Shown here: positions 28,155 to 51,827 of the stretch, piece after piece
How the letters are laid out: each line of letters opens with the position of its first letter
Position numbering within the stretch: position 1 is the first letter of the stretch
NCBI GenBank assembly: GCA_000434335.1
Contig: FR878314.1
Location: forward strand, 992 to 64,991
Length of the DNA stretch: 64,000 nucleotides
Direction of reading: 5' to 3'
Source: Clostridium sp. CAG:492
GTDB taxonomy: Bacteria > Bacillota > Clostridia > TANB77 > CAG-508
Program-made: the position numbers and the translations under genes
The notes under the pieces: model-generated
Databases searched by the model: none
Seen by the model: only the letters and a program-made list of their open reading frames with translations
Told to the model about the DNA's origin: nothing

Positions 28155-29996
28155 TTATTCTACAGTAACCGACTTAGCTAAATTACGAGGTTTATCAACA
28201 TCTAATCCTTTATCTTTTGAAATATAATATGCAAGTAATTGCAAAGGTATTACAGAAAGAATAGGGGATAGAAGCGGATTTGTATCTTCTATTTTTACGA
28301 CATTGTCAAAATTAGAATTTTCTATATCTTGATTTGTTACAATAAATGTTTTAGCACCACGGGTGATAACTTCTTCAATATTGCTTATAGATTTTTCTAA
28401 CAAATTTTTATCTGTTAAAATACTAATTACAGTAATTCCTTTTTCTATTAAAGCAATAGGTCCGTGCTTTAATTCTCCAGATGCATATGCTTCTGAATGA
28501 ATATATGAAATTTCTTTTAATTTTAAAGAGCCCTCTAAAGCAACATTGTAATCGCTTCCTCTACCGATGAAAAATACATCTTTTTCTTTTGAAATCTTTT
28601 TAGCGAATTTTTTTACTTCATCACTAGTCTTTAAAGATGTTTCAATTTTCTTTGGTAAATCAAATATATCTTTTTTCAAATTTTCCAATGTTTCAGAATC
28701 GGTACTTTCTAAAATTTCTGCGAAATATATAGCTAAAATTCCTAAAAGTACAACTTGTGAAGTGTAAGCTTTAGTAGAAGCAACTGCAATTTCTGGACCT
28801 GCATGTGTATAAATTGTATAATCGGCTTCCCTTGTTATTGAACTTCCTATAACATTTGATACAGCTAGTGTTTTTGCTCCTTTTGATTTTGATAATTTTA
28901 AAGCAGCAATTGTATCTGCAGTTTCTCCAGATTGGCTAATGAAAACACATAAAGTTTTTTCATCTATTATAGGATTTCTATATCTAAATTCAGAAGCAAT
29001 ATCAACTTCTACTGGGATATTACAAAGATTTTCGATAAATTTTTTCCCTGTTAAACCAGCGTGCATTGCTGTACCACAAGCTATTATAAAAATTTTGTTT
29101 ATTGTAGATAAATATTCTTTTGTAATATTTATATCACTAAAATTGCAAGGTTCACCTAATTTTAAACGAGATCCGATTGTTTCTCTTATTGCAGTTGGTT
29201 GTTCAAAAATTTCTTTTAACATATAATCTTCATAACCATTTTTTTCAGCTGCAGATGAATCCCATTCAATATTTTTTAGTTCTTTAGAGTGTTCTACTAA
29301 ATCTGAATTATAAAATTTTATAGAATTTTTTTCTATTAAAGCAAATTCATAATCATCTAATAAGTAAAAATTTCTAGTAAATTCTAATAAAGCAGGTATG
29401 TCAGATGCAATATGATATCCTGTCAATCCTTTTCCAATAACAAGAGGGCTATCTTTTCTAACAACAACCATTTTATCTGGATATAAATTACATAAAACTT
29501 CAATAGCAAAACTACCTTTTAAATCTTTAGTTGCACTTTGTACAGATCTTAAAAATTTATTTTCATCATCATTTGTATCTTTTGAAAAGTGATAATGAAT
29601 TAAATTTGGAATAACTTCTGTATCTGTTTGAGATAAAAACTTGTATCCATTATCTGTTAAAAATTTTCTTAATTCTGTGTAATTTTCTATTATACCATTA
29701 TGTACAACAGCAAAAGTTTCACTATTGTCCATATGTGGGTGAGCATTTTCTTTTGATGGTTTTCCATGAGTTGCCCATCTTGTATGAGCTATACCAATTG
29801 TTCCAGATAATTTATTTATGCCTCTTATGTTATTTAAATTTGCAACTCTGCCTTTGTCTTTCATTACACAAATTTTGTCGTCTTCAATGGAGGCAATTCC
29901 AGCTGAATCGTAACCTCTATATTCTAATGCTGTAAGCCCAGTTAATAAAATAGGGCATGCTTTTTTTTCTCCAATATAACCTACTATTCCACACAT
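28155..29996 (-). CDS. glmS: Glutamine--fructose-6-phosphate aminotransferase
   Basis: Start set at MCGIVGY (catalytic Cys2). Two SIS domains and a C-terminal KSVTVE. Confidence 0.97.
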   Translation of the reverse strand: MCGIVGYIGEKKACPILLTGLTALEYRGYDSAGIASIEDDKICVMKDKGRVANLNNIRGINKLSGTIGIAHTRWATHGKPSKENAHPHMDNSETFAVVHNGIIENYTELRKFLTDNGYKFLSQTDTEVIPNLIHYHFSKDTNDDENKFLRSVQSATKDLKGSFAIEVLCNLYPDKMVVVRKDSPLVIGKGLTGYHIASDIPALLEFTRNFYLLDDYEFALIEKNSIKFYNSDLVEHSKELKNIEWDSSAAEKNGYEDYMLKEIFEQPTAIRETIGSRLKLGEPCNFSDINITKEYLSTINKIFIIACGTAMHAGLTGKKFIENLCNIPVEVDIASEFRYRNPIIDEKTLCVFISQSGETADTIAALKLSKSKGAKTLAVSNVIGSSITREADYTIYTHAGPEIAVASTKAYTSQVVLLGILAIYFAEILESTDSETLENLKKDIFDLPKKIETSLKTSDEVKKFAKKISKEKDVFFIGRGSDYNVALEGSLKLKEISYIHSEAYASGELKHGPIALIEKGITVISILTDKNLLEKSISNIEEVITRGAKTFIVTNQDIENSNFDNVVKIEDTNPLLSPILSVIPLQLLAYYISKDKGLDVDKPRNLAKSVTVE

Positions 29997-30039
29997 ATTA
30001 ATCACAATCCTTTCGTTTTTAATTATTAAATTAATTAAA

Positions 30040-30197
30040 AGATATACAGGATTATTATGCTATAAATATTATTTTGTAATCAATATTACTATTGATTTTT
30101 GTAAATATTTTAATGACTAGCACTTGCCATAGAGCATCCGCCGAATTTTCGATAAACTCTAACCTCGTCAGCAATATATAATATTGCTCTGGCGCTT
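30040..30197 (-). promoter_or_regulatory. glmS ribozyme (GlcN6P-activated self-cleaving riboswitch) in the glmS leader
   Basis: The minus strand reads AGCGCCAGAGCAAUAUUAUAUAUUGCUGACGAGGUUAGAGUUUAUCGAAAAUUCGGCGGAUGCUCUAUGGCAAGUGC. This contains the conserved cleavage-site AGCGCC, GACGAGG and UAUCGAAAAUUCGGCGGAUGC core elements. The 3' boundary is approximate. Confidence 0.85.
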
Positions 30198-30322
30198 AAA
30201 ATGTAACCTCCTTATATATTTTTTTAGTATATCTTTTATGGGGATATAGTACATCAAAAATATTTTAATTGCAAGTGAATTTTTTGTGAAAATGACAATA
30301 TTAATTTTTACAAAAATATTAT

Positions 30323-30351
30323 TTGACACGTAAAAAAAATATAAGTATAAT
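30323..30351 (+). promoter_or_regulatory. Consensus sigma-A promoter TTGACA-17-TATAAT
   Basis: Read directly from the sequence. About 45 nt upstream of the 30399 ORF. Confidence 0.55.
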
Positions 30352-30398: not shown

Positions 30399-30872
30399 AT
30401 GAGAGTAGAAGTTTCATACATATATTTGTATTTAGCAATTATAGTATCAATTGTAGTATGTTTTTGTATGATATTGGGGTTAATAAAAAAAATAGGTCAA
30501 TGGGGAATTTTTTCAAAAGCTGGCATATCAGAATGGAAATCGTTAGTTCCAGTTTATAATCAAATACAATTATTAAAAATATGCAAATTATCACCTTGGC
30601 TTGTTGTTTTATACTTAGATTTTTTAATACCAATTATTGGTTTTTATGCAGGAAGAGATGTTAGTTGGACTTTTATTATAATGTTAATTGGATTTTTATG
30701 TTACCGTTTTATGATAGCAGTAAGATTAGGATATTGCTATAAAAAAGGTGCAGTTTTACCATTTTTTATGGCATTTTTCCCATCAATATTTTTTCCAATA
30801 ATAGGATGCTCAAAAAAAGAAGAATATACTGAACTTGTTATACAAAAAAAATCAAAAAGAAAAGATAAATAG
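30399..30872 (+). CDS. Small polytopic membrane protein (DUF5684-like)
   Basis: GAAGGGAG RBS. The FSKAGISEWKSLVPVYN motif resembles the DUF5684 family. Four hydrophobic segments. Confidence 0.5.
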   Translation: MRVEVSYIYLYLAIIVSIVVCFCMILGLIKKIGQWGIFSKAGISEWKSLVPVYNQIQLLKICKLSPWLVVLYLDFLIPIIGFYAGRDVSWTFIIMLIGFLCYRFMIAVRLGYCYKKGAVLPFFMAFFPSIFFPIIGCSKKEEYTELVIQKKSKRKDK

Positions 30873-33689: not shown

Positions 33690-33773
33690 TGGTGCGGATG
33701 AAGGGACTTGAACCCCCACGTCGTTGACACTGGTTCCTAAGACCAGCGCGTCTGCCAATTCCGCCACATCCGC
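33690..33773 (-). tRNA. tRNA-Leu (anticodon UAG), CCA encoded
   Basis: The minus strand reads GCGGATGTGGCGGAATTGGCAGACGCGCTGGTCTTAGGAACCAGTGTCAACGACGTGGGGGTTCAAGTCCCTTCATCCGCACCA. Features are a 7-bp acceptor stem, the anticodon loop CTTAGGA, a long variable arm and a GTTCAAGTC T-loop. A TTGACA-18-TAATAT promoter lies at 33826-33797. Confidence 0.95.
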
Positions 33774-37049: not shown

Positions 37050-37161
37050 TTTTATAAATTATAAGAACAGGAAGCTATTTTTAGAAACTAAAATATAAAT
37101 ATAAGTATGTAGAAATTATAAAATATAGTTTGAAAAGTAACTTCTAGTGGAGGTACAAAAG

Positions 37162-39675
37162 ATGCGTGAAGTAGATGTAGATAAATTGTTAGATATGATA
37201 AAAAACGAAGACGAAGAACATTTAGAGGAAATAATAGGTGGGTATGGAGAGGAAGAGCAATTTGATTACTTAAAAATGGCAATATGGATCAAAAATAAGA
37301 TTTATATAAAACCAGAGCAAAAAGAAAAGTTGAAAGAAGCGATTTATTTAGAGGATGAATACGACCCAGATATTATTGCTGTCTTTATATCAGCATTATT
37401 AGATAAAGATGAAATTAAAACTTTAATTAATGGAAAAAATAACTTGGAAAGTGAGATATATACAGTTTTTATAAAAACTACAGGAGAAATAGAACAATAT
37501 TTAACAGACGAAAAAATAAAAGAATTAGGATTGGATTCAAAAGATATCTATAAGTTAATAATAGAAACAGGAAAAATAGAACAATATTTAACAACAGAGA
37601 ATATAAGAGGATGGGGACTGGATTCATCACAAATTTGTGAGTTAATAAGAAAGACGGGAAAAATAGAAAAGTATTTAACAACAGAAAATATAAAAAAGTT
37701 GGGACTGGATTCATCTCAAATTTTTGAGCTAATAAGTGAGACAGGAAAAATAGAAAAATATCTAACAACAGAAAATATAAAAAAGTGGGGTTTGGATTCA
37801 TATCAAGTTTGCGAATTAATAGTGAAAACCGGAAAAATAGAAAAATATTTGACGCCAGAAAATATAAGAAAGTGGGGTTTGATACCAGATATTGCTTTTC
37901 AATTCATCAACGAAACATCAAATGATGATAATTTTCAGTTTATTTATAATATGGGGTTTGATCGTACAGAGATAAAAGATTGTAAACTTATATATAAATA
38001 TTTAGATTATTTTTTAGAAATAGAAAAGCAGACTGAAAAAAAAGATATTATAGAAAGAATGTACAAAAAAAACAATGATATAGTAAAGGTAAATTTTGAA
38101 ATATTAGATAATAAATATTTACAAGCATTAGGAGAAGATAAAATAAATCAAATATCTTGCTATCCAGAATATGTAGAGAAAATATTAAATTTAAGTGAAA
38201 CAGAACTAAATTTGTTAGGAAAATGCTTGGAAATTTATGAAAAAAATAATGAAACAGAAGATTGGACACCTTTATGTGAAAGAATATTAAAAAATATTGG
38301 TACTTATAGTAGACTGCTTGAAACAATTGAAGATATTGATCAATTATCTGTCCAAGATATTGATGATTTAATAATAATTCTACTGCAGGAAAATTACTTA
38401 GACATTGAATGTATTGAAGATGTGAGAAATTTTGAAAGTATAAAACAAAAGAAATGTGATGAGATGTTTAAAAATGGAAATATAGAAGAGAAAATAAATG
38501 CTATATGTATTTCAAAATTTGGACAGTCTAAATCAGAGACTGAAGAATTAATAAAAAAATATGCAGAAGGAATAGAATATATAAAAGACAATGATTTACA
38601 ATATTATATAAGAGCTGTAGATGAATTATTATCAATTAATGACCCAGAGATACTTAATCATATATTTAATGAAGTTGAGCCTGTACAAAATGTTAATAGT
38701 ATTTTAATGGAAAGAAATTTGAAAAATGAATATGGAAAATTATATAATGATGGATTATTTTCAATAATCCAAGCTCAAAAGTGTGAAAGTTTAGGAGATA
38801 ATATATACGAAGTTCCTACTGATGAAAATGGTAATATTACTAATTTTAATATGATTATCACATCAATAGCAGCTTTTTTCACAAATAAATCTGAAAATTT
38901 TTACGAAGATTGGAATAGACCAGCTATAGGTTCGCAACATTTTTGTGCAAGTTACATAAGAAGAGATATGTTGGGTAAAGCTAATATTTGGCATTTTTGT
39001 TATGGATTTAGTAATATAACAGACGATAGCTTAATGCTTTCAGGTAGTCGTGATATATTTTCTTCTGATTCTGAATTTGTGTCAAAAGCTGAATGCACAG
39101 AAGAAAGATATTTATCGCCAGATCAGCAAATAAATTGTACAAAAGAGTATAATGAAATGGATTTTAGAAGAATACAAAATGGAAAGAAAAAACAGCCAGA
39201 TTATATAGTTGTATTTAGAGAAAATGGAGAAATTTTTAATATAGATGAAGCAAAAATGGCTTCAGAACAATTTAAAAAAGCAACAGGAAAAGCTTTACCA
39301 ATAGTGATTGTTGACCAAGATAAATGTTTAGAAACCGAGAGAAGATTAGTTATTGAAATGATAGAAGAGTTTAACATAAGCCCATCAAAGGAAAAGGCAG
39401 ATTTAATTTGTCAGAAAATTAGGAATAATCAACAAACAAATATTGAGTTTGCGAGTGATATAGATATTAGTTATATACAAGAATATGATAAAAAAGATGA
39501 TAAAAGAACAGTAACAATAGATGAACTTAATGAGATTTTTGTACTGATAGATCCAAAAGATAGAGAAGAATTGTTAAAAAAATTTAAAGCATTTTGTATT
39601 TGTAAAAAAATAATGGAAAAACAAAGAGGAGAAAAGGAGGCAAAAGGTGATGAAAACGGGGAAATATGCAAATAA
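37162..39675 (+). CDS. Large orphan protein (837 aa) with five tandem 29-aa repeats; function unknown
   Basis: ATG after GGAGG. Long open frame with no signal peptide. The repeats follow TGKIEKYLTTENIKKWGLDSSQICELI.K. I could not assign any catalytic family by eye. Confidence 0.7.
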   Translation: MREVDVDKLLDMIKNEDEEHLEEIIGGYGEEEQFDYLKMAIWIKNKIYIKPEQKEKLKEAIYLEDEYDPDIIAVFISALLDKDEIKTLINGKNNLESEIYTVFIKTTGEIEQYLTDEKIKELGLDSKDIYKLIIETGKIEQYLTTENIRGWGLDSSQICELIRKTGKIEKYLTTENIKKLGLDSSQIFELISETGKIEKYLTTENIKKWGLDSYQVCELIVKTGKIEKYLTPENIRKWGLIPDIAFQFINETSNDDNFQFIYNMGFDRTEIKDCKLIYKYLDYFLEIEKQTEKKDIIERMYKKNNDIVKVNFEILDNKYLQALGEDKINQISCYPEYVEKILNLSETELNLLGKCLEIYEKNNETEDWTPLCERILKNIGTYSRLLETIEDIDQLSVQDIDDLIIILLQENYLDIECIEDVRNFESIKQKKCDEMFKNGNIEEKINAICISKFGQSKSETEELIKKYAEGIEYIKDNDLQYYIRAVDELLSINDPEILNHIFNEVEPVQNVNSILMERNLKNEYGKLYNDGLFSIIQAQKCESLGDNIYEVPTDENGNITNFNMIITSIAAFFTNKSENFYEDWNRPAIGSQHFCASYIRRDMLGKANIWHFCYGFSNITDDSLMLSGSRDIFSSDSEFVSKAECTEERYLSPDQQINCTKEYNEMDFRRIQNGKKKQPDYIVVFRENGEIFNIDEAKMASEQFKKATGKALPIVIVDQDKCLETERRLVIEMIEEFNISPSKEKADLICQKIRNNQQTNIEFASDIDISYIQEYDKKDDKRTVTIDELNEIFVLIDPKDREELLKKFKAFCICKKIMEKQRGEKEAKGDENGEICK
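37480..37914 (+). repeat. Five in-frame tandem 87-bp repeats
   Basis: Units start at 37480, 37567, 37654, 37741 and 37828. Copies 2-4 are near-identical at the DNA level, copy 5 is similar only over roughly its first 57 nt, and copy 1 is more diverged. Confidence 0.9.
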
Positions 39676-39799
39676 AAGAGAAGAAGAAAAAGCAATAAAA
39701 GGCGATTATGGTCGTGTAGCAAAAAAAATTTTAAATATTATAAATGAAAATAAATCAGGAAAAGGTGGTAAAGACGATAAAGGTGGAATGGAAAAATAG
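39650..39799 (+). CDS. Hypothetical 49-aa basic protein, or the N-terminal part of a frameshifted gene
   Basis: ATG 9 nt after GGAGG. It overlaps the end of the 837-aa gene and the start of the 163-aa ORF. Translates to MKTGKYANKREEEKAIKGDYGRVAKKILNIINENKSGKGGKDDKGGMEK. Confidence 0.3.
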   Translation: MKTGKYANKREEEKAIKGDYGRVAKKILNIINENKSGKGGKDDKGGMEK

Positions 39800-40235
39800 T
39801 ATAAATGCGAATACGATTAATAATGTTTTTTCAGAAGTATATGATATTATTTGTCATATGGATGAAGATTTAAGAAATAAAATTCCAAAAAGATTTATTA
39901 AAATAATAAAAGAAAATCGAAACTTAAATTATAATGTAAATATTGATTATAATCAAAACATAAACAAATGGAATATTATATATGATACAAAAGTAATGCT
40001 TTCTGTGATATATAGAGATTTTTTAGTGGATGATAAAAAAAGATATGAGCTTAAAAAGAATGATAGGCTATCAATAGAGGAAAAATATAATACAGAAAAT
40101 CTGTTTAAAAATAATAAAGACGACAAAGAGAAAGTATATAAAGAACAGATAAAAGATGAAAAATCATTAGTTGTAGTAAAAAAAGAAAGATTTTATCATA
40201 AAGTTATAAATTTTATAAGAAAAATTTTTCATTGA
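39744..40235 (+). CDS. Hypothetical 163-aa protein
   Basis: Long open frame in AT-rich DNA, but no RBS before the ATG at 39744. An in-frame stop lies immediately upstream. Confidence 0.55.
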   Translation: MKINQEKVVKTIKVEWKNSINANTINNVFSEVYDIICHMDEDLRNKIPKRFIKIIKENRNLNYNVNIDYNQNINKWNIIYDTKVMLSVIYRDFLVDDKKRYELKKNDRLSIEEKYNTENLFKNNKDDKEKVYKEQIKDEKSLVVVKKERFYHKVINFIRKIFH

Positions 40236-40432: not shown

Positions 40433-41533
40433 ATGTCAAATATATTAGATTACATTAAATGGAGAGGTGATTTAACAATACAAAATGATCCTTTTAATGA
40501 AATAGATAGTTTAATTTTATCTAGATTTTCATATTTACCATTTGATGGAATAATAGAAGAAAATGAAGTTGTAACAATAAGAGAGCTAAATGAAAGATTT
40601 CAAAAACAAGATAAAAACAATATAAATATTTTATGGGATGATGATATAAATTTATTTCCATTAATGGGAAATTCAAAAAGATTTGGCGAAATGAAAGCAA
40701 CAAAATATTCAAATAAATTAAATGTAGAAGAAGAGCTTCAGTTTTCTGCAATAACAATATTAGTTCCAGATGATACGATATTTATATCATATAGAGGAAC
40801 TGATAACACAATTGTTGGATGGAAAGAAGACTTTAATATGGGCTTTAAAAGTCATGTTGGAGCACAAATTGATTCTGTAAAATATTTAGAAGAAATAGCT
40901 GATAAATATCCAAAAAATAATATACGAATTGGAGGTCATTCAAAAGGGGGAAATTTAGCTGTATATTCTGCGGTTTTTGCAACAGAAAAAACTAAAAATA
41001 GAATTATAAAAATATACAATAACGATGGACCAGGATTTGATGATGAAATATCAGAATCAGATAATTACAAACAAATGATAACAAAAGTAAATACATATAT
41101 TCCTCAAGAATCTATATTTGGAATGCTACTAAATCATAAAGAAAAATATATAGTAGTAAGAAGTACACAAAAAGGCGTTATGCAACATGATGTGTATTCA
41201 TGGCAATTACTAGGGAAAAATTTTGAATGTTTAAAAGAAGTAACAAATGGTAGTAAAATTATAGATAAATCAATAAAAGATTGGTTTAAACAAATAGATA
41301 TAAAACAAAGAGAGCAAATGATTGATATAATATTTGAAGTAATAAATTCAACACAAATGGATACAATGAGTGATATAAAAGCAGGCGGAATATCAAGTAT
41401 AACAACAATTTTAAAATCATATAAAATGATAGATGCAGAAGACAAAAAAATGCTTTTAAAAACAGTATCAGCATTACTAAAAACAGCAAAAGATAATTTT
41501 TTAGAGCTTAATAAACTAAAAAATGAAGAATAA
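40433..41533 (+). CDS. DUF2974 (Mbeg1-like) alpha/beta-hydrolase/lipase-like protein
   Basis: N-terminal ILDYIKWRGDLT...LILSRFSYLPFDGI and the nucleophile elbow GGHSKGGNLA. Confidence 0.75.
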   Translation: MSNILDYIKWRGDLTIQNDPFNEIDSLILSRFSYLPFDGIIEENEVVTIRELNERFQKQDKNNINILWDDDINLFPLMGNSKRFGEMKATKYSNKLNVEEELQFSAITILVPDDTIFISYRGTDNTIVGWKEDFNMGFKSHVGAQIDSVKYLEEIADKYPKNNIRIGGHSKGGNLAVYSAVFATEKTKNRIIKIYNNDGPGFDDEISESDNYKQMITKVNTYIPQESIFGMLLNHKEKYIVVRSTQKGVMQHDVYSWQLLGKNFECLKEVTNGSKIIDKSIKDWFKQIDIKQREQMIDIIFEVINSTQMDTMSDIKAGGISSITTILKSYKMIDAEDKKMLLKTVSALLKTAKDNFLELNKLKNEE

Positions 41534-41543
41534 AAATCTTTAT

Positions 41544-41572
41544 TTGACATATATTAAAACAAATGCTATAAT
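41544..41572 (+). promoter_or_regulatory. Consensus promoter TTGACA-17-TGcTATAAT driving a short non-coding transcript
   Basis: Perfect -35 and -10 elements with an extended -10. No ORF lies downstream before the terminator. Confidence 0.6.
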
Positions 41573-41578
41573 ATCTAT

Positions 41579-41650
41579 AGCATTAAGCAAAGCAAGTTTT
41601 TTAATTAGAACACAAAAAAAGACTAGGAATCGCACTCCTAGTCTTTTTGT
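41579..41650 (+). ncRNA. Predicted sRNA of about 70 nt (candidate type I antitoxin RNA)
   Basis: Bounded by the consensus promoter and the bidirectional terminator. It contains AGCAAGTTTTTTAATTAGAACAC (41591-41613), a near copy of 41710-41734. That makes it complementary to the start-codon region of the convergent small ORF mRNA. Confidence 0.5.
41614..41650. terminator. Bidirectional intrinsic terminator shared by convergent transcripts
   Basis: Perfect 8-bp stem GACTAGGA/TCCTAGTC (41621-41643) with a 7-nt loop, A7 upstream and T5 downstream. Confidence 0.75.
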
Positions 41651-41657
41651 TGTTTTG

Positions 41658-41723
41658 TTAGTCTTTATCATTTAATATAATATAAACAATAATAAGAGCT
41701 AACATTTTTAGCAAGTTTTTCAA
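41658..41723 (-). CDS. 21-aa hydrophobic peptide MKNLLKMLALIIVYIILNDKD (candidate type I toxin)
   Basis: TTG start 8-10 nt after AGGGAGGTG. A single TM-like core with a charged tail. The stop lies about 14 nt before the shared terminator. Too short to appear in the ORF track. Confidence 0.45.
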   Translation of the reverse strand: MKNLLKMLALIIVYIILNDKD

Positions 41724-41771
41724 TTAGTGAACACCTCCCTTCTTAGAGGGAATGTCCGATAGGACTTGCTA

Positions 41772-41800
41772 ATTATATATTAAATTACAAATACAATCAA
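41772..41800 (-). promoter_or_regulatory. Promoter TTGATT-17-TATAAT for the small-ORF transcript
   Basis: Read on the minus strand. It would place the TSS near 41765, at AGCAAGUCC. Confidence 0.45.
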
Positions 41801-41819
41801 TAAATTATAGTGCAATTCT

Positions 41820-41848
41820 TTGACTTATTGAATAAAATTATATATAAT
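41820..41848 (+). promoter_or_regulatory. Promoter TTGACT-17-TATAAT for the DUF368 gene
   Basis: Read directly from the sequence. Divergent from the small-ORF promoter. Confidence 0.55.
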
Positions 41849-41917: not shown

Positions 41918-42781
41918 ATGAAAAATTTTTTCAAAGGAATAATAGTTGGAATTGGAGGAATAGCACCAGGACTAAGTGGTAGCGTTTTACTTGTAATATT
42001 TGGATTATATCAAAAAACAATAAATGCTATTGGAACATTATTTAAAAACTTCAAAAAGAATATAATGTTTTTAGTACCATTATTCTTAGGATTTGGAGTA
42101 GGTGTATTGTTATTTAGCAAAGTAGTAGATTATTTATTAAACACATTTGAAATGCAAACAAGATTTGCATTCTTGGGGCTAGTAATAGGAACAATACCAC
42201 TGTTCTATAAAGAAGTAAAAAAAGAAGGATTCTCAAAAAAATATTATATTTTAATTGCTATATCTGCAATTGCTGGACTACTATTATTTTCACTAAATAA
42301 AGGAGCATTTCCACAAATAGAAAATCCAAATTTAATACAATCTATTATGCTAGGAGTAGCTGTAGCTGGATCATCAATAATACCAGGTGTTGATAGTGCT
42401 GTAATTTTATCTTCACTAGGATTATATGAATTATATGTAAGTTCATTAGCTAACTTTAATTTAAGTGTATTAATACCAGCAGGATTTGGCCTAGTAATAG
42501 GTGCTCTTATAATTTCATTTATAATAAACAAATTAATAAAAAGATTCTATACAGCAACATTTTCAATTATATTTGGATTATTTATATCAATAATTCCAAA
42601 TGTATTAAATGAAAATTGTAAAATGATGTTAGATATAAAAACTGCGGTATCAATTTTAAGCTGTTTAGTAGGCTTTTGCTTATCTTATTATTTAGAGGAT
42701 ATTGAAGGAAATAATGCTAAAATAAAAAATATAATAAAATATTCATCAAGAAAAAGAATTGGAGGAGAAGGCAACGAATAA
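41918..42781 (+). CDS. DUF368 family membrane protein (family recently linked to undecaprenyl-phosphate recycling)
   Basis: Internal duplication with IAPGLSGSVLLVIFGLY and IIPGVDSAVILSSLGLY motifs. Polytopic. Confidence 0.6.
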   Translation: MKNFFKGIIVGIGGIAPGLSGSVLLVIFGLYQKTINAIGTLFKNFKKNIMFLVPLFLGFGVGVLLFSKVVDYLLNTFEMQTRFAFLGLVIGTIPLFYKEVKKEGFSKKYYILIAISAIAGLLLFSLNKGAFPQIENPNLIQSIMLGVAVAGSSIIPGVDSAVILSSLGLYELYVSSLANFNLSVLIPAGFGLVIGALIISFIINKLIKRFYTATFSIIFGLFISIIPNVLNENCKMMLDIKTAVSILSCLVGFCLSYYLEDIEGNNAKIKNIIKYSSRKRIGGEGNE

Positions 42782-49264: not shown

Positions 49265-50572
49265 ATGTCATTTGTAGTTGCAATAGATGGACCTGCAGGA
49301 AGCGGAAAGGGAAGTATAACAGAAATAGTAGCCAAAAAATTAGGCTTAGAATGTATAGACACAGGAGCTATGTATAGATGTGTAACATTAGATATGATAA
49401 ATAAAAATATTAAATTAGATGAATTAGATAAAATAAAAGATCTATTGAACAATATAGATATAAATTTAGATGAAGAAAACAAAAAAGTATTTTTAAATGG
49501 AGAAGATGTTACTGAGAAAATAAGAAGTATGGAAGTAACTAAACTTGTGTCAAAGGTTTCAAGTATAAAAGAAGTAAGACTTAAACTTGTAGATTTGCAA
49601 AGAGCAATAGCTAAAAATAAAGACATAATAATGGAAGGTAGAGATATAACAACAGTTGTATTTCCAAAAGCAGATGTAAAAATTTATTTAGATGCAGATG
49701 TAGAAGAAAGAGCAAAGAGAAGATTTAAACAAAATCAGCAAAAAAATATAGAGTCAACATATGAAGAAGTATTACAAAATATGAAAAATCGCGATGAAAA
49801 TGACAAAAATAAAGAATTTGGTGCATTAAAAGTTGCAGAAGATGCAATAGTGATTGATTCAACAAATATGACAATAAAACAAGTTACTAAAAAAATTGTA
49901 AAATTAATAAAAGATACTAAAAAAGAGCAAAGACTTGAACAAAAAGTTTATGAAGAAACACCAGATACAGCTGTTAAAAGATTTAGATTAAAGCTTACTA
50001 AAGTTATAGTATATAATGTATTTTATAAATTAGTATATAGAATAAAAAAAGTTGATGAAAAAAACCTACCTGATGAAGGAGCATATATATTATGTGCAAA
50101 TCATGTAAATATGTTAGATGCTCTTGCTGTTGTTTGTGGATGTAAGAGAAAAGTTAGATTTATATGTAAAGAAAGTATGTTCAGAAACAAAGCCTTGGGA
50201 TGGGCTCTTAAACTATCAGATACGATACCAATAAATAGAGAAAAAAATGATATTGAAGCAATGAAAAGATCTTTAAAAGCATTGAAAAATGGCGAAGTAT
50301 TAGGAGTATTTCCAGAGGGGACAAGAAAAGGTATGGCAAAAAATTTAAAGGCAAAAAGTGGAGCTGCATTCTTTTCTTTAAAAACAGGAACAAAGGTAAT
50401 TCCAATGGGAATTCAAGGTTCATTTAAACCATTTACGAAAGTAAAATTAGTTTTTGGAGAGCCACTAGATTTTTCAGAATACTACGGCAAAGAAAAAGAT
50501 AAAGAAGCCTTAGAAAAAGTAACTAATATTATTATGGATAATATAGTTATGTTGACAAATAAAGATAAATAA
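49265..50572 (+). CDS. cmk: Cytidylate kinase fused to a 1-acyl-sn-glycerol-3-phosphate acyltransferase (PlsC-like) domain
   Basis: Start at the ATG after GGAGG. The Cmk part has VAIDGPAGSGKGS. The acyltransferase part has the NHVNMLD (HX4D) and FPEGTRK motifs. Confidence 0.8.
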   Translation: MSFVVAIDGPAGSGKGSITEIVAKKLGLECIDTGAMYRCVTLDMINKNIKLDELDKIKDLLNNIDINLDEENKKVFLNGEDVTEKIRSMEVTKLVSKVSSIKEVRLKLVDLQRAIAKNKDIIMEGRDITTVVFPKADVKIYLDADVEERAKRRFKQNQQKNIESTYEEVLQNMKNRDENDKNKEFGALKVAEDAIVIDSTNMTIKQVTKKIVKLIKDTKKEQRLEQKVYEETPDTAVKRFRLKLTKVIVYNVFYKLVYRIKKVDEKNLPDEGAYILCANHVNMLDALAVVCGCKRKVRFICKESMFRNKALGWALKLSDTIPINREKNDIEAMKRSLKALKNGEVLGVFPEGTRKGMAKNLKAKSGAAFFSLKTGTKVIPMGIQGSFKPFTKVKLVFGEPLDFSEYYGKEKDKEALEKVTNIIMDNIVMLTNKDK

Positions 50573-50609
50573 TATATAATAAAAAAATGTTAAGGTAGGT
50601 AAGAAATTT

Positions 50610-51827
50610 ATGGAAAAAATTAATGAAAATATTACATTTGAAGAATTATTAAATCAAACTTTAAAAGAAATTAAAGTTGGTCAAACTGTTACAGGAACAG
50701 TAATTGAAATAACACCTAAAAATGAAGTGTTTATAGATATTGGATATAAAGCTGATGGAATAATTCCAGCAAACGAATACATTTTAAATGCTGGTGAAAC
50801 AGTACAAGAAAAATTTAAATTAGGTGACAGGGTAACTGCTGTTATTGTAAAATTAAATGATGGATTAGGTAATGTATTATTATCATATAACAGAGCAAGA
50901 AGAGAAATTGATAAAAAAGAATTTGAAAGCAAAGTAAATAATAATACAATATTTAAAGCTATAGTTTCAGAAGTAAATGAAAAAGGATTAATAACAAACT
51001 TTAATACAATAAAAATATTTATACCATTATCATTATCTGGAATAAATAGAAACGAAGATCCACATACATATAAAGGAAAAGAAGTAAAATTCAAAGTAAT
51101 AGAGTATAATCCAAAAACAAATAGAATAATAGGATCAATAAAACAAATAGCTGATGAAGAAAAGAAAGCGAAACTTGATGAATTCTGGAATAATGTAGAA
51201 GTTGGAAAAATGTATACAGGAACAGTAACAAGTTTAAGTGAATATGGTGCTTTTGTTGATATAAACGGAGTAGTTCAAGGATTATTACATATATCAGAAA
51301 TGACATGGGAAAGAGATAAAAAACCAAAAGATATATTAGAAGTTGGACAAGAAATAAAAGTTAAAGTAAAAGAAGTTGATAAAGAAAATAAAAGATTAAA
51401 ATTAATTTATGACAAAAAAGGTCCAGATCCTTGGGAAAAAGTAGAAGAAAAGTATAAAGTATCAGATGTAATTCCAGTTAAAGTACTACACTTTGTTCCA
51501 TTTGGTGCATTTGTAAAAATAGAAAAAGGTATAGAAGGTTTAATTCATATATCACAAATATGTGAAAGAAGAATTGCAAAACCTGAAGATGCATTAAAAA
51601 TAGGACAAAAAGTAAATGCAAAAATAATTAGCATAGATAAAGAAAACAAAAAAATAGAATTATCAATAAGAGAAATAGAAGGCACAAGCCAAGATACAGA
51701 CTTAATGGTAAATGAAGAAAAATCAGTAGCAGTACAAGATGAAGAAAAAGGAATGACAACAACTAAAGAAACAGAAAAATCAATGATAAATACAGATAAC
51801 AACAAAGAAATAATAACAAAAGATTAA
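50610..51827 (+). CDS. rpsA: 30S ribosomal protein S1 (four S1 domains)
   Basis: Repeated S1 OB-fold motifs (GTVIEI.., GTVTSLSEYGAFVDI, VLHFVPFGAFVKI). Confidence 0.85.
   Translation: MEKINENITFEELLNQTLKEIKVGQTVTGTVIEITPKNEVFIDIGYKADGIIPANEYILNAGETVQEKFKLGDRVTAVIVKLNDGLGNVLLSYNRARREIDKKEFESKVNNNTIFKAIVSEVNEKGLITNFNTIKIFIPLSLSGINRNEDPHTYKGKEVKFKVIEYNPKTNRIIGSIKQIADEEKKAKLDEFWNNVEVGKMYTGTVTSLSEYGAFVDINGVVQGLLHISEMTWERDKKPKDILEVGQEIKVKVKEVDKENKRLKLIYDKKGPDPWEKVEEKYKVSDVIPVKVLHFVPFGAFVKIEKGIEGLIHISQICERRIAKPEDALKIGQKVNAKIISIDKENKKIELSIREIEGTSQDTDLMVNEEKSVAVQDEEKGMTTTKETEKSMINTDNNKEIITKD

Follow-up and report, generated by a model that had tools for sequence, protein, structure and literature searches.

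The spacer between the DUF2974 and DUF368 genes of Clostridium sp. CAG:492 raises the question of what is specified by a region that carries two convergent promoters, a terminator between them, and an open reading frame (ORF) of 21 codons. The region lies in the window, by which we mean the entire 64,000-nucleotide stretch of contig FR878314.1 that was analysed, and the organism is an uncultured gut Clostridium with a genome G+C content of 26.6%. We conclude that positions 41537 to 41805 probably form a module of type I toxin-antitoxin design, similar in layout to the par loci, in which a small RNA (sRNA) represses the synthesis of a small membrane peptide. The window cassette is a candidate chromosomal member of a family otherwise found, judging from sequence comparisons, in temperate phages of low-GC gut bacteria. 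By analogy with par, we infer production of both RNAs, their pairing in vivo, and toxicity of the peptide. The features of the cassette are as follows.

41537–41805, no single strand: the whole cassette, a block that the nearest syntenic species lacks between DUF2974 and DUF368
41544–41572, plus strand: promoter of the candidate antitoxin sRNA, TTGACA-17-TGcTATAAT, a 12/12 match with a TGn extension and with hexamers that do not vary among 10 strain sequences
41579–41652, plus strand: predicted sRNA of ~74 nt with ends placed by prediction, in which an open 5′ recognition region is followed by the terminator hairpin
41591–41613, plus strand: direct repeat copy 1, within the sRNA, an 18-nt core (41591–41608) with a 5-nt extension, invariant among strains
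41612–41766, minus strand: predicted toxin mRNA of ~155 nt with ends placed by prediction (fold of -45.8 kcal/mol, z = -6.07)
41616–41648, both strands: shared bidirectional intrinsic terminator, AAAAAGACTAGGA-loop-TCCTAGTCTTTTT
41658–41723, minus strand: candidate toxin, a TTG-initiated 21-codon ORF encoding MKNLLKMLALIIVYIILNDKD, identical in 10 strain sequences
41710–41734, plus strand: direct repeat copy 2, which on the mRNA covers the spacer after the Shine-Dalgarno (SD) sequence, the start codon, and codons 2–5
41732–41740, minus strand: SD sequence AGGGAGGTG, separated from the TTG start by 8 nt
41735–41752, minus strand: SD-sequestering hairpin UUCCCU-CUAAGA-AGGGAG in the toxin mRNA leader, present in the minimum free energy (MFE) and centroid folds
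41772–41800, minus strand: toxin mRNA promoter TTGATT-17-TATAAT, a 10/12 match that is found at the aligned position in the phage homologue L122 and again in most of the family

The original prediction, made from the letters of the window, had proposed a perfect promoter on the plus strand that is followed by no ORF. This promoter is the top-scoring site of the region, and no ORF lies downstream of it. Perfect 12/12 promoters occur three times in the 64-kb window where shuffled sequences give an expectation of 0.31, and the TGn extension is found only at 41544–41572. The other two perfect TTGACA-N17-TATAAT promoters (30323–30351 and 50552–50580, both on the plus strand) are located just upstream of ORFs (30399–30872 and 50610–51827, respectively). 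The terminator was likewise expected to act in both directions, and it is called on both strands. Its hairpin has 13–15 base pairs, with A7 upstream and T5/T7 downstream, and a scan of 2.5 kb returned two terminator-like sites versus 0.3 expected. The sRNA predicted to run between these two elements has a fold of -19.3 kcal/mol (z = -4.6 relative to shuffles), in which the 37 nt at the 5′ end are mostly unpaired.

On the opposite strand, the promoter, the SD sequence, and the 21-codon TTG-initiated ORF had also been proposed beforehand, and each is present at the positions listed above. The sequence GGAGGTG occurs at three sites in the window, each 7–9 nt before a start codon, and the other two sites belong to real genes. 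The bases of the SD sequence have predicted unpaired probabilities of 0.01–0.23, and the proposed sequestration by UUCCCU/AGGGAG is recovered in both types of predicted fold. A second proposed helix, between the mRNA 5′ end AGCAAGU and ACUUGCU, is sensitive to the exact start site. It forms only if transcription starts at 41769–41771, which is 1–3 nt past the -10 box, and is abolished by a canonical start (~41765–41767). In a generic scan of ~0.8 Mb of related DNA for an SD sequence, a small hydrophobic intergenic ORF, and a terminator, this cassette was the only one recovered.

The direct repeat AGCAAGTTTTT(T/C)AATTAG, found at 41591–41608 and 41710–41727, connects the two predicted RNAs. None of 300 dinucleotide shuffles of the cassette produced an 18-nt repeat with one mismatch or fewer. 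The AACAC extension that had been proposed along with this 18-nt core is polymorphic, and changes at 41730 and 41732 cause its pairing to be lost in L089, L107, and L110. The duplex between the 5′ part of the sRNA and the translation-initiation region of the mRNA has a predicted free energy of -28.5 kcal/mol (z = -4.95), as expected from the suggestion that the sRNA pairs with this region. The two transcripts are also predicted to be fully complementary over ~41 nt at their 3′ ends, an overlap that had been put at ~37 nt.

These statistics bear on the simplest alternative, namely that the terminator only ends the DUF2974 transcript, that AT-rich sequence merely resembles promoters here, and that the ORF is untranslated. 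Promoter-like hexamers are indeed common in this low-G+C genome, with 26 found in the region versus 20 expected. However, chance is excluded by the repeat and duplex statistics, and perfect promoters are rare and otherwise stand ahead of genes. Moreover, the cassette recurs in conserved form in different phage lineages, where its substitutions follow a coding pattern, as described below. We therefore consider a chance or non-coding origin to be extremely improbable.

The first homologues, L122 and L125, were found by scanning viral contigs for an SD sequence followed by M-K-N-h-h-K-h-h and so on. These loci encode the 22-amino-acid ORF MKNLFKLLALLLIYLIFKNFDN, and their DNA aligns with the window across the entire cassette, including the toxin promoter TTGATT-17-TATAAT, the anti-SD/SD hairpin, and the ORF. 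Their terminator, AAAAGACTAG..CTAGTCTTTTTTT, differs from that of the window by two compensatory inner base pairs. Following the terminator is a copy of the 5′ sequence of their own ORF and a convergent promoter, TTGACT-17-TATAAT. In L122, the neighbouring genes encode an Ant antirepressor, a regulator, and a small terminase subunit.

A scan for the shared terminator stem, filtered for ORFs and complemented by nhmmer, then enlarged the family. It now includes at least 16 distinct peptides of 21–26 amino acids from ~20 gut phage contigs and one GenBank phage. Examples of these peptides are MEQIIKLIVLILIYLILKMFD and MGEYIKLFLKAFALVLIYKILKMFD, along with MKNLLRIIALIVVYLIVKLFD and MREYIKLLLKVIVLVLIYKILKMFD, which are encoded by phage ORFs of 21 or 25 amino acids. 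The peptides have a common core, [AV]L[IV]xIY[LK]IxK[LM]FD, with the C-terminal motif IY.I.K[LM]FD, and most have a phenylalanine two residues from the end. All members carry a GACTAG/CTAGTC terminator stem with compensatory inner pairs (GA/TC versus AG/CT) and variable loops. A scan based on the peptide alone returned only loci that also bear the GACTAG-stem terminator, which indicates that this stem is a trait of the family rather than an artefact of the search. In most phage members, two repeats are present and lie apart from each other.

Purifying selection acts on the ORF. Conservation of the ORF in relatives had been posed beforehand as a check, and homologous ORFs of 21–26 amino acids were found with pooled ratios of nonsynonymous to synonymous differences (pN/pS) of 0.38 for the 21-amino-acid group and 0.33 for the 25-amino-acid group, values at which pS is near saturation; close pairs give 0.11–0.23. 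Such low ratios demonstrate that the ORF is a protein-coding gene. The regulatory elements are conserved as well. A convergent promoter with a match of at least 10/12 is located 41–140 nt beyond the terminator in all 15 of the members that have enough flanking sequence, and the match is 12/12 in eight of these. The mean predicted unpaired probability of the SD sequence is 0.11 in the family versus 0.49 for 150 control genes taken from these loci, which makes SD sequestration a family-wide trait. The helix between the mRNA 5′ end and the first codons is found in several members, and its cognate and non-cognate energies (-6.8 versus -5.2 kcal/mol) are not significantly different, with start sites that are uncertain.

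The sRNAs co-vary with their targets. In each lineage, the sequence after the terminator copies the 5′ end of its own mRNA and/or codons 2–9, which differ between lineages. Cognate duplexes between the sRNA recognition segment and the mRNA have a mean of -30.3 kcal/mol, compared to -16.2 ± 4.7 kcal/mol for 240 non-cognate pairs. In 14 of 16 cases the top rank goes to the cognate sRNA, and the two exceptions reflect near-identical relatives or an anti-SD artefact. Together, the phage homologues, the pN/pS values, and this co-variation support, at the level of sequence, the earlier proposal of a chromosomal type I module with a par-like layout.

The properties of the peptide are consistent with a toxin. 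Type I toxins are recognized as small hydrophobic peptides with a membrane helix and charged termini (PMC6563280). The 21-residue MKNLLKMLALIIVYIILNDKD has a grand average of hydropathy (GRAVY) of 0.94, a hydrophobic run from M7 to L17, lysines at positions 2 and 6, and a D19-K20-D21 tail, and thus has the generic character of such toxins (fewer than 60 amino acids, hydrophobic, with a predicted membrane helix and charged termini). It is also possible that the cassette encodes a small membrane protein under antisense control with a function other than that of a toxin, such as a phage ‘moron’ product whose level is merely tuned by the sRNA. Candidate roles would be superinfection exclusion, modulation of lysis or of a holin, or regulation of a membrane protein of the host. 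Purifying selection shows that the peptide matters, which is not the same as toxicity, and the aromatic and charged C-terminal motif IY.I.K[LM]FD could be a specific interaction surface. In addition, family members occupy lysogeny or moron positions, and the window cassette adjoins DUF368, which is a membrane protein gene. However, the combination of a hidden SD sequence, an sRNA that covers the start codon, and an sRNA promoter that is stronger than that of the mRNA is the pattern of a gene that must stay off (PMC7472228). The neighbouring genes are unrelated among members, so there is no fixed partner gene, and two diverged copies reside on one phage contig, as is often the case for type I toxin loci. 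On this evidence, we regard a non-toxin function as fairly unlikely, and a toxin-antitoxin module remains our preferred explanation.

Several observations weigh against this explanation and should be considered together. The hydrophobic run of the window peptide spans 11 residues (M7-L17), or 14 if counted from L4 across Lys6, which is short for a membrane span. Its C-terminus is the most divergent in the family (ILNDKD in place of K[LM]FD, which is otherwise nearly invariant). The sRNA of the window copy is the shortest in the family and is missing the 5′ stem-loop found in phage sRNAs, and the repeat is a single contiguous one. In many phage members, the U-tract in the direction of the sRNA is weak (U4). 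Variation within the species is too low to show selection on the cassette, and recombination or gene conversion, instead of selection for pairing, could in principle keep the repeat copies identical.

Some of these points might indicate that the window cassette is a decaying and no longer functional remnant of a phage-derived module. The divergence of the C-terminus makes an attenuated or decaying copy possible, since the near-invariant Lys18 and Phe20 have been lost with the NDKD tail. The short sRNA without a 5′ stem-loop is in keeping with this view, as is the absence of flanking prophage genes. Nevertheless, the two promoters, SD sequence, start codon, ORF, terminator, and 18-nt repeat are all intact, and they show little or no difference among the 10 strain sequences, which come from different samples. 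The cognate sRNA of the window ranks first among 16 sRNAs with a duplex (-28 kcal/mol) as strong as those of phage members. Furthermore, the tail of L241 (ILNSFN) is intermediate, suggesting that this part of the peptide tolerates change. A dead remnant is thus very unlikely. The window copy of the candidate toxin-antitoxin module may be domesticated or decaying, even though all of its functional elements are intact and fixed in the species.

The 10 same-species sequences are the window, L001 (the contig record of the window itself), L002, and seven further contigs from different samples. L001 and L002 are identical to the window across 600 nt, and the seven other contigs differ at 1–8 of those positions. 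The cassette is present in 10 of 10. Six sites vary in the cassette among these strains, and none of them is in the ORF.

In the account of Weaver, par loci have convergent promoters, a bidirectional terminator that creates complementary 3′ stem-loops on the two RNAs, direct repeats through which the regulatory RNA can cover the initiation region of the toxin, and a stem-loop at the SD sequence (PMC7472228). As in par of pAD1 (fst RNA I / RNA II, Enterococcus faecalis), the present family exhibits convergent promoters, a shared terminator, opposed direct repeats, and an SD stem-loop. In the window, the bidirectional terminator is located at 41616–41648, and the convergent promoters are predicted from the sequence. 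The direct repeat is one contiguous element with a polymorphic 5-nt extension, unlike the DRa + DRb arrangement of par. The RNA pairing that characterizes type I systems is predicted in silico, with the ~41-nt 3′ overlap and an initiation-region duplex of 18–23 bp. Another difference is that the terminator loops of the window (GUGCGAU in the mRNA and AUCGCAC in the sRNA) both lack the YUNR U-turn motif. Not all known par members carry this motif in the loop of the toxin RNA terminator.

The peptides themselves also bear some resemblance to those of par/Fst systems in that they begin with a charged stretch (MK[DN]L...), continue as a hydrophobic helix, and finish in a charged tail, and in both groups the repeats are poorly conserved between loci. 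Fst and Ldr proteins carry a conserved tryptophan where the transmembrane helix gives way to the charged C-terminus, as well as a P/D/S/TxxxG(C) motif whose proline and glycine are essential in Fst (PMC7472228). Unlike Fst, none of the family members has a tryptophan at the junction of helix and tail. MKNLLKMLALIIVYIILNDKD contains no tryptophan, and the only one in the family is at position 4 in L161. The P/D/S/TxxxG(C) motif is absent, and the hydrophobic cores of all 16 peptides lack proline, glycine, and cysteine. Moreover, the family has its own GACTAG terminator stem and IY.I.K[LM]FD motif. Fst-family peptides are ~27–35 amino acids in length and Fst has 33, compared to 21–26 in the present family. 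Given that the promoters, terminator, repeats, and SD stem-loop of par are present and the Fst/Ldr toxin features are not, the module would be expected to work like par without being a member of the Fst family.

Other known systems share some of these features. In the SprA1/SprA1AS pair of Staphylococcus aureus, which belongs to the Fst family, the antitoxin overlaps the toxin mRNA at the 3′ end only, and a separate 5′ domain pairs with the initiation region and represses translation. The present family resembles this system in its predicted 3′ overlap and its predicted separate 5′ pairing domain over the initiation region. PepA1, the SprA1 product, is a 30-amino-acid peptide with an Fst-type motif. 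It has no sequence similarity to the present peptides, and the host and genomic context differ. Both the SprA1/SprA1AS locus and PepA1 are mentioned in PMC7472228. IbsC of the Escherichia coli ibs/Sib system has 19 amino acids and is still toxic at 15 amino acids with at least 10 hydrophobic residues (PMC8309996), and therefore a peptide of 21 amino acids can be a type I toxin. The ibs/Sib peptides, like the present ones, are very short and hydrophobic. However, ibs/Sib is found only in Proteobacteria, the two groups have no similarity, and IbsC lacks a positively charged C-terminal end. The Sib sRNA is transcribed from the strand opposite ibs, across the full length of that gene.

Type I modules are also known from Clostridioides difficile prophages and include CD0956.2/RCd10 and CD0977.1/RCd11 among others. 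PMC6563280 and PMC7699646 describe these as convergent overlapping genes with a proposed role in prophage maintenance. They share with the present family a Clostridia host, carriage by prophages, a hydrophobic N-terminus, and a charged C-terminus. Their toxins are longer (34–59 amino acids) and have lysine-rich tails, sequence similarity to the present family was undetected, and a repeat-based par-like layout is not reported in these descriptions.

By analogy with par, the module might operate as follows. The moderately strong minus-strand promoter would produce the ~155-nt mRNA for the 21-residue hydrophobic peptide, and the leader hairpin would hide the SD sequence to keep default translation low. 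The consensus promoter on the plus strand would generate an excess of the convergent ~74-nt sRNA, ending at the same bidirectional terminator. The sRNA and mRNA could then bind through their ~41-nt complementary 3′ ends, and the open 5′ part of the sRNA would pair over 18 (+5) nt with the start codon and codons 2–5, thereby blocking ribosome binding. The resulting duplex is probably cleaved. If the level of the sRNA were to drop, the peptide would be made, would insert in the membrane, and would arrest or kill the cell. In phages, such toxin release would stabilise the prophage or exclude competitors.

The family apparently has not been described. It has no match in Pfam, NCBIfam, PHROGs, or Rfam, nor in the literature that was searched. 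This agrees with the suggestion of the original prediction that a peptide without an Fst motif might belong to an undescribed family. The window peptide and six relatives match no Pfam or NCBIfam family at E-values up to 10, although the sensitivity of these searches is low for peptides of 21–26 amino acids. The peptides likewise match nothing in PHROGs. Among the toxin-antitoxin RNAs of Rfam, there is no match to the window region at E-values up to 10 or to six family loci at E-values up to 1, beyond weak matches driven by the terminator. The peptide strings were found in no paper of the literature searched.

On balance, we lean towards the view that the window cassette is the founding chromosomal example of an undescribed type I family of temperate phages of low-GC gut Firmicutes, with the shortest known toxins in Gram-positive bacteria (21–26 amino acids), no Fst signature, and a complete par-type architecture. 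If so, the par regulatory architecture can be separated from the Fst toxin fold. The par scaffold would then predate the Fst toxin, extend more widely than it, and be able to host unrelated peptides, or else it would have evolved twice. Such modules are barely known in uncultured gut Clostridia and their phages. The 16 toxin/sRNA pairs, with their differing recognition sequences, would constitute a natural compensatory set for the study of pairing specificity between sRNA and toxin mRNA. Very short membrane peptides of 21–26 amino acids would also join the candidate addiction or exclusion factors borne by phages in the gut.

The cassette is flanked by a DUF2974/Mbeg1-like gene (40433–41533, plus strand) and a DUF368/VCA0040-like gene (41918–42781, plus strand). 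The closest species that keeps this adjacency is represented by L083–L088, and in L083 the DUF2974 protein is 74% identical. The spacer of L083 is only 90 nt in length. When it is aligned with the window, the DUF368 promoter is retained and ~265 nt of the cassette are missing. This promoter, TTGACT-17-TATAAT at 41820–41848 (plus strand), reads TTGACTTATTGAATAA...TATAAT and is a near base-for-base match in L083. The remaining spacer sequence cannot be aligned. The absence of a ~265-nt block from the nearest syntenic species identifies the cassette as a discrete module, which the alignment presents as an insertion or deletion relative to that species.

Two other interpretations of this block were tried and not adopted. 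A miniature transposable element was considered, but the block edges carry no convincing terminal inverted repeats or target duplication. A riboswitch or DUF368 leader was discarded because DUF368 is served by a separate promoter that lies downstream of the cassette and is conserved between species, and because just 37 nt precede the terminator.

Among the GTDB species representatives reached via DUF2974 (80 loci), neither the cassette nor synteny with DUF368 was found. Other DUF2974 relatives (~70% identity) have different neighbours and are therefore uninformative on the cassette. Upstream of DUF2974, gene content differs even between strains whose DUF2974 genes are 98% identical (window 37147–40235 versus L089 1–2983). 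The window carries an 842-amino-acid repeat-rich protein and ORFs of 50 and 163 amino acids, whereas L089 carries a ParE toxin gene, a tetratricopeptide repeat (TPR) protein, and a NUDIX hydrolase. The region adjoining the cassette on this side looks like a strain-variable island.

Homologues were also sought by other approaches. A blastn search of the cassette versus plasmids and phages returned short AT-rich noise alone, and the exact back-translated peptide pattern had no matches in viral contigs. A fixed-length codon pattern of hydrophobic and polar classes gave one chance match in viral contigs. In metagenomes, the same pattern recovered six cassettes of the same species and nine chance matches without an SD sequence, with no divergent homologues. 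A tblastn match in L011 proved to be the first membrane helix of a 342-amino-acid protein and hence not a homologue. The codon-class search also matched a recurrent 21-codon ORF, MKQVLKVLSFLLIVFFLDQHD, in L098, L099, and L111 (metagenome contigs Ga0209208, Ga0116226, and Ga0116230), which is treated as unrelated because it lacks an SD sequence and a terminator.

Some phage members have additional features. In the GenBank phage PQ006095.1 (bajarodcaudo virus 4, from rodent faeces), a conserved 25-amino-acid ORF (L252 2516–2593) adjoins the CI repressor gene and is unannotated. The existing annotation instead includes two 37-amino-acid ‘hypothetical proteins’, of which one (L252 2406–2519) overlies the toxin promoter and leader and the other (2749–2862) is located just past the sRNA promoter. 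The 42-kb phage contig IMGVR_UViG_3300006213_002330 contains two diverged members of 22 amino acids (MKNLFK..., L125 448–491) and 25 amino acids (MRELLK..., L244 1098–1136). In two phage contigs, tRNA genes are situated ~200–250 nt from the cassette (L139 208–278; L169 2329–2497), which suggests that these copies sit close to a tRNA attachment site, at the end of a prophage.

The sequence CCUCCUU(UC) is present in the 5′ region of the sRNA in most phage members (L122 3440–3500; L139, L149, L152, L182, L241, L153, and L200) and is absent from the window copy. On the toxin strand it corresponds to an SD-like box, GAAAGGAGG, that is followed by an ATG and by a short ORF that is not conserved. The sequence might act as an anti-SD element aimed at the toxin SD or belong to the 5′ stem-loop of the sRNA. 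Elsewhere in the window, a glmS ribozyme (30054–30207, minus strand; 106 bits) is located upstream of a 616-amino-acid ORF (28155–30005, minus strand). Together with a tRNA gene (33693–33773, minus strand), it accounts for all Rfam matches in the window at gathering score.

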